Shown: one piece after another, positions 1 through 48,620 of the stretch
How the letters are laid out: every line of letters begins with the position of its first letter
Numbering within the stretch: position 1 is the stretch's first letter
Program-made: the position numbers and the translations under genes
Notes under the pieces: generated by a model
Databases searched by the model: none
Seen by the model: the letters and a program-made list of their open reading frames with translations, nothing else
Told to the model about the DNA's origin: nothing
Origin: Candidatus Marinacidobacterium sp.
GTDB taxonomy: Bacteria > Acidobacteriota > Vicinamibacteria > Marinacidobacterales > Marinacidobacteraceae
NCBI GenBank assembly: GCA_965204755.1
Contig: OZ242011.1
Span: forward strand, 1,312,001-1,376,000
Length of the DNA stretch: 64,000 nt
Direction of reading: 5' to 3'

Positions 1-407
1 ACCAGCCGGTGGCGCGCGGCGTAGAGCGCCCGGGCCATGCCCCGCCGGCGGTAGTCGGGATGGACCGCGAGGTCCACGCCGTAGAGCCAGGCGCCGTCCG
101 GGTCGTGGGCGCCCAGGAACCCGCCGCCGAAGATGTCCTCGAAGGAGTGCTCCGGCCGGTCGAGGTCCGTGTCCAGCCGCACCGTGGTGGTGGAGGCCAC
201 CGGGATGCCGGGCATCTCCCCGGCGACGGCGGCGAACTGCCCCTCGGGGAACATGGCCACATGCCGCCGGTAGTGGGCGGCCTCGAACCGCTGGCGCGGG
301 TCCAGGGTGGGGAATACCCGGCGCTGGAGCGCGGCCAGGGTCTCCGCGTGTTCGGGCGCGGTCGGGACGACCCTCCACCGGGCCATCGGGTCCGGGCGGG
401 GCGTCAT
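1..407 (-). CDS. GNAT family N-acetyltransferase (YkwB-like), 3'-truncated by the window edge
   Basis: Not in the ORF track. Manual translation from ATG 407: MTPRPDPMARWRVV...FPEGQF...HDPDGAWLYGVDLAVHPDYRRRGMARALY, which contains the acetyl-CoA binding motif A (VHPDYRRRG). Confidence 0.85.
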   Translation of the reverse strand, partial: MTPRPDPMARWRVVPTAPEHAETLAALQRRVFPTLDPRQRFEAAHYRRHVAMFPEGQFAAVAGEMPGIPVASTTTVRLDTDLDRPEHSFEDIFGGGFLGAHDPDGAWLYGVDLAVHPDYRRRGMARALYAARHRL

Positions 408-417
408 CGGGGCGGAC

Positions 418-1908
418 TCACCCGGCGGCCGGCCGGGGACGAAGACCCAGCGTGCCGAGCCGCCCGTGTTCGGCGATCGGCCGGCCCCCGGAGTCCGTGA
501 GCCGCCGCGGTGGATGGGAGGCGCCGGTCAGGATCGAGACCGCGACCATGGCCGCGAAGGACAGCGGCATGGCGATCAGGGCGTTCGGCAGGGCCGTCGC
601 GCCGGCGAACAGCGCCCCGCGCAGCACCAGCGCCAGCCAGACGCCGAGGCCGGTGAGGATGCCGGCGACGGCGCCCGGCCCGTTCGCCCGCTTCCAATAG
701 AGCCCGAGCGTGAGGGGCGCGAACAGCGCGACCATCATCACCGTCCACGACTCCACCATCAGCGTGTACACGCTCCCGAACAGGAGCGCCACCGCCAGCG
801 CGAGCCCGCAGAACACGACGACGCCGGCGCGTACGGCGACCAGGACTTCCTTCGGGGACAGGTCCTTCGCCACATTGCGGACGATGTTCTGGCCGAACAC
901 GCTGGCGGGCGCGAGCAGGCCGCTGTCCGCGGAACTCATCATCGCGGAGAAGAGCGCCCCCAGGAACAACGCGAGCCCTACCGGCGGCAAGTACTCCATC
1001 GCCAGCCGGGGCACGATCTCCTCCGGGTTCGAGAGACCGGGCATGAGCACCGAACCCACCATCCCCAGCGCCACCGGAATCAGCCCTACCACGAGATAGA
1101 GCCCGCCGCCGAAGTAGGCGCTCCACTGGGCGATCCGTTCGCTCCGGGCGCTGAGCGCCCGCTGCATCAGGTCCTGACCGGGAAGGTTGCCGACCCCGAT
1201 GAGCAGCCACGCCTGCAAGAAGAACGCCCACTCGAGGACGCCGCCCGCCGGCAGGAAGCGCGTATGGCCCTCCCGCATCCGCTCGACCGCCGACGAAACG
1301 CCGCCCGCTTCGCCCAGGACCAGCGGCAGGAGGACGGAGATCGCGGCGATGAGGACGACGGCCTGGAAAAAGTCGGTCAGCGTGACCCCCCACATCCCGC
1401 CGAGGACGGTGTACGCGAGCACGATCGCGGCGGCGATCATCACGCTGGCGACGAAGGGAAGGTCGGCGTACGCGGAGAGCACCGTTCCCACCGCCAGGAG
1501 TTGGGAGCCCACCCAGCCGATATAGGCGGGCAACACCGAAGCCGCGCCCAGGATCTCGGCCGTCCTCCCGAATCGCCGACGGAAGAAGTCGGCGACGGTG
1601 AGCAGCCGCAGCCGGCGCAGCACCCGCACATAGAACGCCCCGGCGAGAAGCAGGCAGAGCGCCGCGCCGAACGGATCGGCGACCACCGCGGAGAGTCCGC
1701 CGGAGTACGCGGCTCCGGCCGCCCCGATCATCGTGCCGCCCCCGAACCAGGTGGCGAAGAGGGTGAAGGTGCAAAGCCCGATCCCCAGCCTCCGCCCGGC
1801 GACGACGAAGTCGGTCGCGTTCCGGATCCGCCTCGACGAGAGCGCCCCGAGCGTCAGCAGCGCGAGCAGGTAGAGCGCGACGGTGATGCCGACGAAGGCG
1901 TCGCTCAC
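418..1908 (-). CDS. Sodium:solute symporter (SSS/SLC5 family)
   Basis: 496 aa, about 13 hydrophobic segments; DFVVAGRRL, ATWFGGG, YTVLGGMWGVTLTDFFQ, QDLMQR and AMMSSADS motifs. Confidence 0.9.
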   Translation of the reverse strand: MSDAFVGITVALYLLALLTLGALSSRRIRNATDFVVAGRRLGIGLCTFTLFATWFGGGTMIGAAGAAYSGGLSAVVADPFGAALCLLLAGAFYVRVLRRLRLLTVADFFRRRFGRTAEILGAASVLPAYIGWVGSQLLAVGTVLSAYADLPFVASVMIAAAIVLAYTVLGGMWGVTLTDFFQAVVLIAAISVLLPLVLGEAGGVSSAVERMREGHTRFLPAGGVLEWAFFLQAWLLIGVGNLPGQDLMQRALSARSERIAQWSAYFGGGLYLVVGLIPVALGMVGSVLMPGLSNPEEIVPRLAMEYLPPVGLALFLGALFSAMMSSADSGLLAPASVFGQNIVRNVAKDLSPKEVLVAVRAGVVVFCGLALAVALLFGSVYTLMVESWTVMMVALFAPLTLGLYWKRANGPGAVAGILTGLGVWLALVLRGALFAGATALPNALIAMPLSFAAMVAVSILTGASHPPRRLTDSGGRPIAEHGRLGTLGLRPRPAAG

Positions 1909-38551: not shown

Positions 38552-41500
38552 CTACGGCGCCTCGCCCAGATAGGACAGTTCCTGCGCCGCCTCTCGCTGG
38601 CGGGCGAGGATCGCGTCCCGACGGGCGGTGACCTCCTCCGGGAGGAAGAACTTCTGGTGTTGCCCGAGTCCCGTACCGGCCGGCACCAGGCGGCCCATGA
38701 TGACATTCTCCTTGAGCCCGAGCAGTTGGTCCACCTTGCCGTTGAGCGAGGCCTCGGTGAGCACCTTGGTCGTCTCCTGGAAGGAGGCGGCGGAAATGAA
38801 ACTGTCCGTCGCCAGCGAGGCCTTGGTCAGGCCCAGCAGCATCGGGTCGCCTTCGGCGGTCTTCCCGCCCTCCTGCTCCGCCTTGGTGTTCGCCCGGGCG
38901 AACTCGTGGCGGTCGAGAACCGAGTCGGCGATGAGGTCGGTGTCCCCGACATCCTTCACCCGCACCCAGCGCATCATCCGGCTGATGATGACCTCGATGT
39001 GCTTGTCGTCTATCACGACTCCCTGCAGCCGATAGACCTCCTGCACCTCGTGCACCAGATAGCGCTGCAACTCGCCCTCCCCGAGCACGCGGAGGATGTC
39101 GTGGGGGTTGCGCGGCCCGTCCATGAGCGGATCGCCGGCGCGCACATCCTCGTGCTCCCGCACGCTGATGTGCACTCCTCGGGGCACTTCGTACTCGCGG
39201 GGTTCGCCGCCGCCATCGGGAACGACCCGGACCAGGCGCTTGCCCTTGCGCACATCGCCGTACTCCAGCCGCCCGTCTATCTCGCTGATCAAGGCCGGGG
39301 CCTTCGGCGGGCGCGCCTCGAAGAGTTCCACCACGCGGGGCAGCCCCCCGGTGATGTCCTTGGTCTTCGTCGTTTCGCGCGGGATCTTGGCGAGGACATC
39401 GCCCGGACGGACGACATCGTCCTCCCCCACCTCGAGATGCGCCCGGGACGGCATGAGGTAGGTGCGGAGGACACTTCCCTCCGGGCCGGTGATCTCGATC
39501 CTCGGCTCGTGGCGGTCGTCCGAGGACTCGATGATGACGGGTTGCGACCGGAAGGTCACATTGTCCACTTCCTGGATCATCGTGATGTCGCTGATGATGT
39601 CCCGGAAACGGACGGTTCCGCCTTCCTCCGAGAGGATGGAGAAACTGTAGGGATCCCACTCCACGATCACTTGCCCGGGCGAGACCCGGTCTCCGGCCGA
39701 GGCCTTGATCCTCGCGCCGTACACCACCGGATGGCTCTCGAGCGGACGCCCCTCCCCGTCCACGACTTCCACGGCGCCGGAGCGGCTGATGACCACGAGG
39801 TTGCCGTGGCGGTCGCGCACCAGGCCGGAGCGGCGAACGCCGTTCGCCTCCGGCTCGGCCTCGGCGCCGCTTTCCGAACCGGCATTCGAGCCGGGTTCGG
39901 GCATCCTCAGGTTTTCGGAGAACCGGATGGCCCCCTCGTTTCGAGCCTCGAGCGCCGAGTTCTCGAAGACGCTCGCGGTCCCCCCGATGTGGAAAGTGCG
40001 CATCGTGAGTTGCGTACCGGGTTCACCGATGGACTGCGCCGCGATGATGCCGACGGCCTCGCCGAGATCCACGAGTTTGCCGGTCGCGAGGTTCCTGCCG
40101 TAGCACATCGCGCAGACGCCTCGTTTCGCGTCGCAAGTCAGAACCGAGCGGATCTTGACCTTCTGGACGCCGGCGTTCTCGATCTCGCCGGCGATCCGCT
40201 CGCTGATCTCCTGGCCGGCGTCCACGATGAGTTCATTCGTGAAGTCCTTGACCTCGTCGAGACTGACCCGGCCCACGATCCGCTCGCGCAGCGGCTCGAT
40301 CACCTCGCCGGCTTCGATGATCGGCTCGGCGTAGATGCCCCGCAGGGTCCCGCAGTCCCGCAGAGTGACGATCACATCCTGCGCCACATCGGCGAGCCTC
40401 CGCGTGAGATACCCGGCGTCCGCGGTCCGAAGAGCCGTGTCGGCGAGACCCTTGCGCGCCCCGTTCGTGGAGATGAAGTACTGGATGACGCTCAGTCCCT
40501 CGCGGAAGTTGCTGGTGATCGGCGTCTCGATGATCGCGCCGGTCGTCTTGGCCATCAGGCCGCGCATTCCCGCGAGTTGGCGGATCTGCTTCTCGCTGCC
40601 TCTGGCGCCGGAGTCCACCATCATGAACACCGGGCTGAAGCGTCCGGTCGCCCGCTCCCGAGCCTGCATGGTGGCGAGCATGTCCTCCGCCACCCGGTTC
40701 GTGGTGTTCGACCAGACATCGATCACCTTGTTGTAGCGCTCACCCTCGGTGATCGCCCCCTCTTGGTACTGCGCCTCCACCCGGCCGACTTCGGCCTTCG
40801 CGTCCTCGACGAGCGCCGCCTTGTTCGGGGGAACGACCAGGTCTCCGAGCCCGATGGAGGTGCCGCTCAGGGTCGCGTAGTGGAACCCCAAGTCCTTCAG
40901 CGCATCGAGAACCCGCGCGCTCTCTTCGAGCCCGTAGCGCAGGTAGATGAGTCTGACCAGGTTCTGGATGCCCTTCTTCTTGAGGACACCGTTCACGAAC
41001 GGGGCCTCCTCGGGCAAGTGGTCGTTGAAGATGACCCTGCCCACCGTCGTGGCGATTCGCCGGCGCTCGACCCGAGTGGTCTCGATCCGGAGCAGGTTCT
41101 GGCTGTCGTGGGTGTCCATGACTTCGCCGGTGTACCGCAACTCGATCGGCGTCAGCGTGGACACTTCACCGCTGTCGAGAGCGAGGAGGACATCCTCGGT
41201 GGTCGCGAAGACCTTCTTCTTCTCCGGAGGGATGACCTGGGGCTTCGTCAGGTAGTAGATGCCGAGCACCATGTCCTGGGTCGGGACGGCGAGCGGGCCG
41301 CCGTGCGCCGGCGACAGGATGTTCCGCGACGAACGCATGAGGACCGACGCTTCGATCTGCGCCTCCGGCGACAGCGGCACATGGACCGCCATCTGGTCGC
41401 CGTCGAAGTCCGCGTTGAACGCGCTGCACACCAGCGGATGGATGCGGATCGCCTTTCCTTCCACGAGGACCGGCTCGAACGCCTGGATGCCGAGCCGGTG

Positions 41501-44125
41501 GAGGGTCGGCGCGCGGTTCAACAGCACGAAGTGCCCGCTGATGACCTCTTCCAGGAAGTCCCAGACCTCCGGCCGCTGCTGTTCCACGAGTTCCCGGGCC
41601 TGTTTGATCGTGTCCGCCAGCCCCTCCGCCTCCAAGCGGTTGAACAGGAACGGCTTGAACAACTCCAGCGCCATCTTCTTGGGAAGGCCGCACTGGTGCA
41701 GTCTCAGTTCAGGGCCGACGACGATGACCGAGCGTCCGGAATAGTCCACCCGCTTCCCGAGCAGGTTCTGGCGAAAACGCCCCTGCTTGCCCTTCAGAGT
41801 GTCGGAGAGGGACTTGAGGGGTCGGTTGTTCGTGCCCTTGAGGACGCGGCCGCGGCGGCCGTTGTCGAAGAGAGCATCCACCGCTTCCTGGAGCATCCGC
41901 TTTTCGTTGCGAACGATCACATCGGGCGCCCGGAGTTCGAGCAACCGGCGCAGTCGGTTGTTGCGGTTGATGACCTTTCGGTACAACTCGTTCAGGTCGC
42001 TGGTCGCGAACCGTCCGCCGTCGAGCGGCACGAGGGGCCGCAGGTCCGGCGGGAGGACCGGTATCGCCTCCATGATCATCCACTCCGGAAGATTTCCGGA
42101 CTTGCGGAAGGCGTCCACCACCTTCAGGCGCTTGGCTGCCTTGGCCTTCTTCTGGATCGAGCGTTCGTTCCGCATCGCATCCCGAAGTTCCACCGCAAGG
42201 GCGTCGAGGTCGGCCTCGCGCAGCAACTGTTTGGCCGCGCCGGCGCCCATGTCCGCAGTGAAAGTCCGGCCCGGCGTCTTCATCCGCTCGCGGAATTCCG
42301 CATCGGACCGACCGAACAGCCGCTTCAGCAAGCGGTCCTGCTCCTCGGTGACGACCTGACCCTTGCGCAGGACGCCGAGCCGGACATTCGCGATACGGAA
42401 GCGTCGCGGGATCTCCCCGAACGAGAAGCGGAACAGCGGCTGCAGGAGCGCGATCTCGGCCTCGGTGAAAGTCTCGCTCCGCTCCTGCAGCAGTTCGAGA
42501 TTCACATCTCCCGGATCCCGCACTTCGTGGATCGAGTCGAGCCGGTAGAGACACTTCCTCGTGCCGCGAATCTTCATCCGCTCGCGGAACTCGGTGTCCG
42601 TGGAGCCGAACAGTCTCCTGAGCACCCGGTCCTGCTCTCCGGTCACGACCTGCTCCGGGCGGAGTTCGCCGATCTTCACGCGGCCTACCCGGTAACTCTC
42701 CTCGAAGTCGAACAGAGTGTGCAGCGCCGAAAGGTCGGCAGCGCTGAGCAGGGTCTTCGCCTCGCGAACGAGAGCCAGATCCACATCCCCCGGATCGAGG
42801 ATTTCGTGGACCGAGTCCATACGGTGGAGGGTCTTCTTCCCGCGGAGTTTCATCCGGCTGCGGAACTCGGTGTCCGTTTTGCCGAAGAGCCGCTTCAGCA
42901 ACCCGTGCTGTTCGTCGGTGAGCGGCTGACCCTTCCGGAGGGCGCCGACGGTCACCTCCGAAACGACCTGACGGTCCTCGCCGCTCTTTTCGGTTTGGAA
43001 CTCGAACAGTTCGCCGAGACCGGAGACATCGTCGTCGGTCAACTCGACCTTGCGGTCGCGAAGCAGTTCGACGCTCACCTGCCCCGGATCGAGAACGACC
43101 TGTGACACCAACTTGGAGCGGCAGGGACGACCCGGCTGCCCGATCTTCTTCTCGAACTCCTCTTCGTTCGAACCGAACAACTTCCGGAGCAGGTCCATCT
43201 GCCGGCCATGGAGTTGCCGGCCCCGCTCGAGAGTCCCCCGCGCGATCTCGCCGATCGGGTGGCGCCTCGCGGACGCTTCCGGTGCAAAGTCGAACAGTTC
43301 CTTGAGGGTCTTGAGTTCCTTCTTGCCGAACTCGATGCCCCGGTCGCGCAACTGGGAGAGGTTCACGGCTCCGGGGTCGAGGACGAACTGGGAGGTCAGC
43401 GTGGTGGTCGCCGGCCGGCCGGTCTTGCCGGTCCGGTCCCGGAAGTCCTCCTCCTTCTTCCCGAAGTACCGCTCGATCAGCAGCCGCTGCGCTTCGCTGA
43501 TGGACTGTCCCTTCTTCAGGACGCCTGCCTTGACCGAGGCGATCGAGAAGCGGCGATCGATCTCCTCGAAGGAGAAGGCGAACAGTTGCTGCAACGACGC
43601 CACTTCCTCGGCGTCGAAGAGATCCTTGCGCTCGCGCAGGAGGGAGATGTCCACATCGCCCGGATCGAGGACGATATAGGACTCGTAGTAGAGGACGCGT
43701 TCCAACTCGCGGGGGGTCAGGTCGAGAACCTGTCCGATGCGGCTCGGCGGCACCTTGAAGAACCAGACATGGGACACCGGGCACGCCAGTTCGATGTGCC
43801 CGAGCCGGCTGCGGCGGACGGAGGCCTGCGTCACTTCGACGCCGCACTTGTCGCAGACCACTCCGCGGTGCTTCATCCGCTTGTACTTGCCGCAACTGCA
43901 CTCCCAGTCGTTGACCGGCCCGAAGATCTGCGGGCAGAAGAGGCCGCCGCGCTCCGGCTTGAGCGTCCGGTAGTTGATCGTCTCGGCCTTGGTCACTTCT
44001 CCGTGCGACCAGGCCCGGATCTTCTCCGGCGCGGCGATCGAGATCTTGATCGCGTCGAAGTCCGAACTGAACGCCTCCCGCTCGTCGAGTTCCGGGAAGA
44101 TCCCGGTCGAGTCAGTCGTCTGCAT
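38552..44125 (-). CDS. rpoC: RNA polymerase beta' subunit, 1857 aa, with a large N-terminal tandem-repeat insertion
   Basis: Zn finger [44 protein letters not shown]. Confidence 0.98.
42263..43675 (-). repeat. Five in-frame protein repeats (96, 96, 98, 93, 88 aa) within rpoC
   Basis: Units start at 43675, 43387, 43099, 42805 and 42526, each with (L/R)DPG...LF.F...G.L...LFG...(E/D)F. Confidence 0.9.
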
Positions 44126-44194
44126 GAGGCGTCCTCCCGCCCGGATACATCGTGTTCCGTTCGCACCCGTCAGGTGCGTTCGCCTGAGTCCCGG

Positions 44195-48430
<4,236 letters not shown>

Positions 48431-48620
48431 GAGGAGAGTCACCGGGAGAAGAGTCGCCGGACCGGAGTCATCGGGCGAAGATCATGGGAGACGGGAGGAC
48501 CCGGGTCGAAACCGGCCGCATCCGTCCGCGGGGCTCCGCTCCCCCGGGGCGCCGCCGGGACACGCGGGGCCGGCGGAGGACCGGGGGCCGGGAGGCCGAT
48601 CGACACGAAGGCGATCCGCT

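Follow-up and report, generated by a model that had tools for sequence, protein, structure and literature searches.

Probable origin of a five-unit array in the RNA polymerase beta' subunit of Candidatus Marinacidobacterium from its own clamp toe

Introduction

The rpoC gene of Candidatus Marinacidobacterium sp. (Acidobacteriota, Vicinamibacteria; contig OZ242011.1 of assembly GCA_965204755.1) raises the question of how a short segment of the RNA polymerase (RNAP) clamp came to be occupied by a tandem array of five units, and whether such an array belongs to the working enzyme. The gene lies in a window of 64,000 nucleotides (positions 1,312,001 to 1,376,000 of the contig), which is the whole stretch of DNA analyzed and to which all positions below refer. 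The first-pass annotation, which was made from the sequence alone, had described five units of 96, 96, 98, 93, and 88 amino acids (aa) at 42263-43675 and had interpreted each as an expanded copy of the native DPG...LxxGQ...FG segment, i.e., as a core element amplified in tandem. In the present analysis, a 54-kDa five-domain appendage, folded in appearance and under selection, was found to replace the ~4-kDa clamp toe in the sole beta' subunit of this organism. We consider it likely that this protein is the housekeeping beta' of a Vicinamibacteria bacterium, in which the clamp toe was enlarged and then amplified five-fold to form an appendage at the clamp tip.

The presence of an insertion hot spot at this site is already known, as are RNAP inserts composed of tandem modules (Thermus beta'i2, cyanobacterial SI3, and beta-i4). 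The site is that of the actinobacterial beta'i1 and Thermus beta'i2 inserts (PMC5511352), in line with the lineage-specific insertion site indicated by the first-pass annotation. In the literature searched, which did not include the catalogue of Lane & Darst 2010 or the rare-variant table of PMC11515920, no Acidobacteriota insert at the toe site was found, nor an alpha/beta unit built from the toe itself, nor a five-fold amplification in one genus beside one-copy relatives. Searches for literature on 'Marinacidobacterium', or on 'Vicinamibacteria' together with 'rpoC', returned nothing.

Organization of the array

The coordinates and lengths of the units (Table 1) agreed with those first described, and a DPG motif was found in each of them (residues 154, 250, 346, 444, and 537). 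A profile hidden Markov model (HMM) built solely from 14 single-unit relatives, with zero sequences from the genus of the window, recovered five non-overlapping domains in RpoC, with scores of 52.5-106.6 bits (i-E from 2e-18 to 3e-35), whereas the maximum for 200 shuffled arrays was 7.2 bits. In the alignment, the units had an identity of 36-51% to unit 1 and 15 invariant columns, and the identity among the five copies is now 34-51%. The residues conserved in common across 24 aligned units were almost all of the hydrophobic-core or turn type (P, G, F, F, L, F, G); the array as a whole was highly charged, with 85 K/R and 81 D/E per 471 aa.

The repeat was visible at the protein level only: Tandem Repeats Finder detected no DNA-level tandem repeat in 41500-44500. 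The nucleotide identity between units was 0.49-0.63 (0.41-0.55 at third codon positions), and this low identity indicates that the duplications are old and that the copies have evolved without ongoing homogenization. The linkers after units 1 and 2 were alike, as were those after units 3 and 4, in agreement with the phylogenetic tree of the units (see below).

Table 1. Positions in the window of rpoC, the array, its units, and the family-specific element
Feature	Position	Strand	Residues	Characteristics and basis
rpoC, RNA polymerase beta' subunit	38552..44125	minus		1857 aa, 207 kDa; translation, Pfam Rpb1 domains 1-5, operon context
Array of five tandem clamp-toe units	42263..43675	minus	151-621	471 aa, 53.9 kDa; alignment, HMM, orthologues, unitigs
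Unit 1	43388..43675	minus	151-246	96 aa; 86.3 bits; N-half most ancestral-like among N-halves (56%)
Unit 2	43100..43387	minus	247-342	96 aa; 52.5 bits; most diverged; sister of unit 1
Unit 3	42806..43099	minus	343-440	98 aa; 80.6 bits; sister of unit 4
Unit 4	42527..42805	minus	441-533	93 aa; 74.7 bits
Unit 5	42263..42526	minus	534-621	88 aa; 106.6 bits; C-half (83% identity to single-unit consensus) leads into conserved F-T-A-D-MGAGA
Family-specific ~44-aa element (helix, helix, beta-hairpin), unit 5 example	42371..42502	minus	542-585	Sister-family comparison, predicted secondary structure

Composition of the unit: native clamp toe and additions

The nature of the unit became evident from comparison with the sister families f2 and f3 of the same order. 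In four genomes from these families, the toe was of the ordinary short type, V-V-I-[DE]-P-G-D-T-P-L-K-E-K-E-L-L-S-E-E-R-Y..., followed by F-x-A-x-M-G-A-E. The segment between Y[FY]E.Y and F.A.MGA comprised ~31-35 aa in these four genomes and in five other bacteria, among them Treponema, a Victivallales metagenome-assembled genome (MAG), and a Planctomycetaceae MAG, so that the typical length of ~35 aa given in the first-pass annotation holds. When aligned with MAFFT, the ordinary sequences mapped onto residues 151-159, 586-595, and 610 onward of the RpoC from the window. Each unit can accordingly be divided into four parts, namely, the native first strand including the DPG turn; an added element of ~44 aa; the native second strand (L-R-K-G-Q-V-V) with its helix (T-E-E-Q...F-G); and ~12-14 further residues forming a second short helix. 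In all five units, the ~44-aa element occupies the tip of the hairpin of the native toe.

The alignment with the sister families thus supports the original proposal that each unit is a copy, in enlarged form, of the native clamp-toe segment (V-x-DPG ... L-x-K-G-Q ... F/Y-G ... F). The earlier claim that a core element has been amplified stands with one addition: enlargement, which concerns the family, and amplification, which concerns one genus, are separate events. In E. coli, the clamp toe corresponds to beta' residues 142-180 (PMC13198411); this small domain at the clamp tip, composed of a hairpin and a helix, is named beta'-bD2 in the 2024 nomenclature, where it counts as an insertional domain and is also called "small left claw" or sLC (Alvarez-Carreno et al. 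2024, PMC11515920).

Distribution and evolutionary steps

Building an HMM of the unit in order to establish its distribution and copy number, as had been proposed, revealed a family-wide single unit and five copies in one genus. When the 471-aa array was used as a query, matches were obtained in 24 of 41 related genomes and in 23 of the 24 other genomes of the same family (f1). The profile of 24 units matched 27 of 201 genomes across the class, all of them from this family (26 of its 27 other genomes), and none of 173 genomes from 18 other Vicinamibacteria families; the array is thus not class-wide, whereas a match to a catalogued insertion common to the whole class had been named in the first-pass annotation as a refutation. 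The only family genome lacking a match, G003, is 87% complete and consists of 270 contigs; since the rpoC N-terminus could not be matched in it either, its miss is uninformative as to absence. Five matches per genome were found only in the source genome (G000) and in the second genome of genus g1, Ca. Marinacidobacterium (G001), within the 201-genome sample. In G001, the array is 495 aa long and comprises five units colinear with the units in the window, with 24 extra residues in unit 2. In genera g2, g4, g5, g6, and g7, exactly one unit of ~87 aa lay between YYES[YFH] and MGA; this single unit was read directly in 14 relatives and was longest (103 aa) in G010.

In a collection of 5.8 billion clusters, 13 proteins matched the array. 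Four of these clusters (90% identity) spanned 100% of it: one was 98% identical and had 38 member sequences, and three had identities of 62-63% and proteins of 1901-1912 aa; the other nine matches spanned 18-23% of the array. Orthologous five-unit arrays were established for G001, P0003, P0008, P0009, and P0010. Of 17 retrieved proteins analyzed locally with hmmsearch, 5 had five units, 11 had a single unit, and 1 had a single unit divided by an insertion; no form with two to four units was found among these 17. The unit profile matched only 5 of 1.84 billion representative proteins at E<=0.001, namely, a five-unit RpoC, three fragments with a single unit, and the 1281-aa EF-hand repeat protein P0007 (E 4.5e-4), which was rejected as a spurious match due to chance. 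With unit 5 and its flank as a query, 39 loci were obtained, 36 of them outside Vicinamibacteria (mostly Treponema). The five of these that were read had the ordinary short toe, and such matches were therefore taken to have entered via the conserved flank.

In the phylogenetic tree of 24 units (about 96 columns), each unit of G000 paired with the corresponding unit of G001, with support of 98-100 for units 2-5; units 1 and 2 formed one clade and units 3 and 4 another. Judged from these sequences, the enlarged toe is a character of the family, and the five-fold array arose a single time, prior to the divergence of the species sampled in the genus. The comparison shows two steps. In the family ancestor, a ~44-aa helix-helix-hairpin element was acquired at the tip of the toe hairpin together with a short helix at its end, converting a toe of ~33 aa into an alpha/beta domain of ~87 aa. 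In the genus ancestor, tandem duplication of the whole domain with a few flanking residues gave five copies, among which units 1/2 and units 3/4 form sister pairs; these copies have since diverged, with the frame kept and under purifying selection.

Other elaborations were noticed at the toe in relatives. At locus L022 (G010:C1:2793700-2796100, genus g6), ~290 K/E-rich residues resembling a coiled coil follow the 103-aa unit and precede MGAGA; this segment is reminiscent of actinobacterial beta'i1, and the open frame there comprises 2440 aa. In genus g4 (L021 in G004 and L023 in G009), ~50-60 extra residues lie between the unit and MGAGA, and a second insertion of ~75-80 residues occurs farther on, between the clamp segments '..EMR' and 'SIQKRAKAAKRL'; these insertions represent a third independent elaboration of the beta' toe region in the family. 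At the very end of contig 1 of G022 (L020, G022:C1:1341000-1343600), there is a second, partial rpoC with one unit, frameshifted into frames of 340 and 218 aa, which may be an assembly duplicate or a pseudogene.

Integrity of the gene, assembly support, and selection

The frame was free of stops over the entire minus-strand open reading frame, and all five Rpb1 domains (PF04997, PF00623, PF04983, PF05000, and PF04998, in order) exceeded the curated Pfam cut-offs. In the translation, NADFDGDQM and the N-terminal zinc-binding cysteines were both readable; we take these to be the catalytic motif and the zinc motif of RpoC, respectively. An intact frame with all catalytic motifs had been claimed earlier, together with a beta' of ~205 kDa, and both statements agree with the translation and its computed mass (~207 kDa). 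A search with the PF00623 profile found one rpoC locus each in G000 and G001, each of which is a single contig. The GC content at third codon positions was 0.851 in the array versus 0.885 in the remainder of rpoC; given this closeness, there is no signal of foreign DNA.

Read support across the array, named earlier as a check, was sought in 24 listed public runs; three of them, flagged as possible sources, were left unused, and none of the 24 was an RNA run. In 16 of the 24, half or more of the words sampled from 42000-44000 were present, and runs with any of the stretch represented 8 studies; in 15 runs, positions 41800-44200 were nearly complete (0.77-0.99 of the sampled words). For each of four runs from four other studies, a single unitig (2009-2011 nt) extended over 41882/4-43892; these unitigs had 0, 0, 0, and 5 substitutions and zero insertions or deletions. 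The array is not an assembly artefact. The unitigs end at two places of increased depth, 41882 and 43892; these are conserved rpoC segments common to other community members. One joint, from 42088 to 43871 in run X3, was rejected: it was present in one contig, with 23 letters on its shorter side, at a depth of 49 vs 282 and below the reliability bound, and since it would remove the clamp helices, it was treated as a chimeric or foreign contig. Some of the runs were labeled as marine or sponge metagenomes and others by coded organism names, which suggests a marine, possibly sponge-associated organism.

Between G000 and G001, the ratio of nonsynonymous to synonymous substitution rates (dN/dS) was 0.36 for the array (470 aligned codons; 0.28-0.50 per unit), as against 0.067 for the 150 codons before it and 0.061 for 500 aligned codons after it; the amino acid identity was 64% in the array and 93-95% in the flanks. 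By this comparison, the array is under purifying but relaxed selection. In annotation, an RpoC of 1857 aa in Ca. Marinacidobacterium should be regarded as genuine.

Predicted structure of the units

The AlphaFold2 model of unit 5, computed from the 24-unit alignment (predicted local distance difference test score (pLDDT) 77.6, predicted template modeling score (pTM) 0.60), consisted of helices 10-15 and 22-28, strands 33-39 and 42-50, and helices 61-71 and 75-82. In a larger model of residues 21-800 (780 residues, 25-sequence alignment), this pattern was seen five times; the pLDDT of ten-residue blocks over the array (111-660) was 53-93, mostly >80, and the linker together with the following x-V-L-D formed a strand of 10-11 residues. 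Each unit was modeled with four helices and two long strands at a pLDDT of about 80-90, and the longest helix of the array comprised 11 residues. The unit is thus clearly predicted to be an alpha/beta domain, neither an all-beta sandwich-barrel hybrid motif (SBHM) nor a long coiled coil. Likeness to SBHM domains, which the first-pass annotation had suggested examining on one unit, was not borne out, a weak likeness to uL10/P0 (BEAN) being obtained instead. No SBHM chain was among the structural matches listed, an absence that does not exclude the SBHM family.

Foldseek gave no match of the unit model to the PDB at E<=0.001. In a wide search independent of Foldseek, 7 of 17 chains with Z>=2 were the insertion domain of archaeal/eukaryotic uL10 (P0, Mrt4), the best match having Z 3.8, a root-mean-square deviation (rmsd) of 3.2 A, and 71 aligned residues. 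In a second structural search (20 chains with Z>=2), the same domain accounted for 16 of the 18 matches listed (Z 2.4-4.0). Over both searches, these matches had low Z (2.1-4.0), an rmsd of 3.2-4.3 A, and 65-73 aligned residues of 88, so that the modeled unit weakly resembles the uL10/P0 insertion ("BEAN") fold. In PMC11515920, the bracket elements of BEAN are alpha1-beta2-beta3 and beta4-beta5-alpha6, antiparallel; the uL10 insertion domain is classed as BEAN, a class that also includes the beta-subunit BBM2 inserts and the bD2 insert of type 2 beta'; and the sequence-similarity criteria used are BLAST p<1e-12 and an HHalign probability >70%. Membership of the unit in BEAN is not supported at the sequence level: PF17777 (RL10P_insert) scored 15.2 bits on the whole array, below its cut-off of 29.1, and matched 1 of 24 units at E 0.18, while hhalign of the unit profile against the RpoB of this genome gave a probability of 0.19%. 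Pfam had no match to PF21668 inside the array, searches of Pfam and of PDB sequences with the array gave sub-threshold noise only, and a search of the ESM Atlas gave no usable match.

When the 780-residue model was used with Foldseek/VIA, beta' chains were found via the flanks, along with generic helical matches. One match, to a solved stretch similar in size to the small left claw (8syi_Z 1136-1177; 42 aligned residues, rmsd 2.1 A, Z 5.0), covered the model range 129..606 and hints that, as modeled, unit 1 places its strand next to where unit 5 ends. In comparison with the single-unit consensus, the N-half of unit 1 was 56% identical (other N-halves, 33-46%), and the C-half of unit 5 was 83-89% identical (other C-halves, 40-66%). 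Because these parts are the most ancestral, and considering the 8syi_Z match, we lean toward an arrangement in which the beginning of unit 1 and the final part of unit 5 occupy the native position; the polymerase core would then probably be contacted by the first strand of unit 1 and by the last strand and helices of unit 5. The five units would fold as similar domains, giving an appendage of ~54 kDa on the clamp tip.

Two arrangements fit the sequence: five self-contained domains or a cyclic strand swap. In the latter, each hairpin would be completed by the first strand of the following unit, with unit 1 supplying the strand for unit 5, so that a closed ring would form a new clamp-tip domain gating the access of sigma region 1.1, the sigma non-conserved region (NCR), and promoter DNA to the cleft. 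We regard this ring as an improbable, speculative arrangement. Were it true, a piece of the polymerase core would have been amplified within one genus, with a living one- versus five-copy 'before and after' pair illustrating the way in which lineage-specific inserts of RNAP originate and gain a function.

Possible role of the array and alternative explanations

In E. coli, the toe is the docking place of the sigma-70 NCR and region 1.1 (PMC13198411). Two known inserts start from this insertion point: actinobacterial beta'i1, which extends from the clamp tip across the cleft entrance, and Thermus beta'i2, which comprises five SBHMs and is reported to be involved in sigma A binding (PMC5511352). 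Since the toe docks these sigma regions in E. coli and the actinobacterial and Thermus inserts emerge there, the array would be expected to alter the clamp-tip surface met by sigma and the incoming promoter DNA. It may, by analogy and at rather less than an even chance, tune sigma docking and holoenzyme formation, promoter opening, or escape, but not catalysis. Several observations weigh against the reading of the array as an amplified, functional clamp-tip appendage. Its dN/dS is six times the flank value, and constraint this weak could reflect only a need for folding or solubility. The primary sigma factor is 585 aa in both five-unit genomes versus 582 and 579 aa in single-unit relatives, and across the 24 units there is no conserved surface patch pointing to a ligand. 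The unit tree resolves the two sister pairs but not a common clade of all five units. In the truncated model, the polymerase core is poor (pLDDT <50, pTM 0.40), so that the placement of the array and the packing of its units are predicted only, and we infer the expression of the array in the mature protein from selection and from rpoC being the sole copy.

Part of these observations would be explained by a near-neutral expansion at a permissive toe site following an accident of replication or recombination, the copies being kept because deletion or unfolding is harmful and having no transcriptional role of their own. Such an expansion agrees with the contrast in dN/dS between the array and its flanks (0.06-0.07), with conserved columns of core and turn residues only, with an unchanged sigma A, and with unrelated additions at the same place in other genera of the family (~290 aa in G010 and ~50-60 aa in G004/G009), which point to a tolerant site. 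It is harder to reconcile with the retention of five units in order, without frameshift or stop, across lineages only 62-64% identical in the array, with the lack of any decayed or lost unit or two- to four-copy form among the 17 proteins, with a dN/dS below 0.5 for every unit, and with the prediction of each unit as a confident domain by AlphaFold2; on balance, we consider it the main alternative, though rather unlikely. The charged, repeated surface domains at what is a sigma-contact site in E. coli, and the several independent elaborations of this site in one family, which could reflect an arms race, would also suit a docking platform that recruits a lineage-specific transcription factor or a shield that blocks phage or toxin inhibitors targeting the clamp. 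The units, however, share no conserved surface motif, no candidate partner emerged, and the locus is a ribosomal-protein/rpoBC operon in which no link to phage or defence genes was seen, which makes this function very unlikely. That the array is an assembly artefact, a pseudogene, or a removable intein-like element outside the working enzyme is scarcely credible. A long repeat in a metagenome-assembled genome, together with the lack of RNA or protein evidence, would invite this suspicion, but the repeat is too diverged at the DNA level for mis-assembly, four studies yielded unitigs extending across it, five-unit arrays also occur in a second closed genome and in four further clusters, and the frame is intact in the only rpoC. 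Inteins typically have C/S/T and HN residues at their splice junctions. The array boundaries are ..SY/IVLD and ..GRT/FTAD, and their I/T...F residues do not fit this rule; no intein, Hint, or endonuclease family was detected in RpoC at E<=1 (Pfam), and an intein was rejected.

Genomic context and additional observations

The rpoB gene lies directly upstream of rpoC at 44195-48442, within an operon of the order tuf-nusG-rplA-rplJ-rplL-rpoB-rpoC-rpsL-rpsG-fusA, all on the minus strand. In RpoB, residues 88-110 (48113-48181, minus) contain C-x-C ... C-x-x-C, resembling a small zinc ribbon near the N-terminus. In the C-terminal half of RpoC, residues 1409-1434 (39824-39901, minus) form a low-complexity stretch rich in Gly, Ser, Ala, and Glu; at this spot, P0003 has a longer segment with four E-K-A-A-D repeats, making it a second variable spot of the protein. 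Comparison of the sigma A loci L067-L071 (G026, G005, G000, G014, and G001) revealed that those of the family are ~17 residues longer between regions 1.2 and 2.1 than that of the sister-family genome G026, five-unit and one-unit genera being alike in this region.

Comparison with known systems

Lineage-specific inserts of RNAP are usually ancient, phylum-wide, and of obscure origin, whereas in the present case the origin can be read from the sequences: the clamp toe of the enzyme itself provided the material of the insert, in two steps dated to the family and the genus, with the one-copy state retained in close relatives. The family therefore offers a natural one- versus five-copy comparison for the effects of a clamp-tip appendage on sigma docking, promoter opening, and escape. 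The predicted alpha/beta repeat would be a third structural solution at this hot spot, beside the coiled-coil and SBHM inserts. The case overturns nothing; it is an unusually clear, recent, and testable example of the birth of a polymerase insert.

The closest parallel is beta'i2 of Deinococcus-Thermus, which is located in the same beta' region (about position 140-160, at the clamp tip, within or beside the toe) and likewise consists of five modules and a few hundred residues (PMC5511352). The modules of beta'i2 are all-beta SBHMs with complex connections, whereas the Marinacidobacterium units are predicted to be alpha/beta with four short helices; the Pfam, PDB sequence, and representative-protein searches found no sequence relation of beta'i2 to the array; and beta'i2 occurs at the phylum level, whereas the array is confined to one genus and its repeated module is the native toe. 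Actinobacterial beta'i1 (~90 aa, about position 140) shares the hot spot, and its position may be compared with that of the ~44-aa element at the toe hairpin tip; however, beta'i1 consists of two antiparallel helices of about 40-45 residues (PMC5511352), while the predicted helices of the array do not exceed 11 residues and a repeat array is present instead.

According to Alvarez-Carreno et al. 2024 (PMC11515920), the beta'-bD2 of type 2 beta' in Chloroflexi/CPR contains an inserted BEAN domain (formerly BBM2), and rare beta' variants of Firmicutes and the DST group have BEAN, HABAS, or sLC inserted in bD2. The same source places Acidobacteriota in Gracilicutes, most members of which have type 4 beta'. 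The likeness to type 2 beta' lies in an extra alpha/beta element a few residues into bD2 and in the recurrence of the BEAN-classed uL10 among the structural matches of the unit. The differences are that no sequence relation was detected with the unit HMM in 1.84 billion representatives, that the added element has ~44 vs ~70 aa, and that the Marinacidobacterium element is repeated five-fold in tandem and occurs in Acidobacteriota.

A precedent for a small alpha/beta module tandemly repeated in variable copy number on the RNAP surface is beta-i4 (E. coli SI1), in which one to six BBM2 repeats occur, depending on the lineage (Opalka et al. 2010, PMC2939025). It belongs to another subunit and site (the beta lobe), and the hhalign comparison with RpoB given above indicated no relation to the unit. 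Cyanobacterial SI3 (beta'i6), with many SBHM/HABAS domains in the trigger loop, recursive insertion, and swapping of elements between domains (PMC11515920), is similar to the array as a large multi-domain repeat insert in beta', but differs from it in its trigger-loop site, its fold, and its phylum-wide occurrence.

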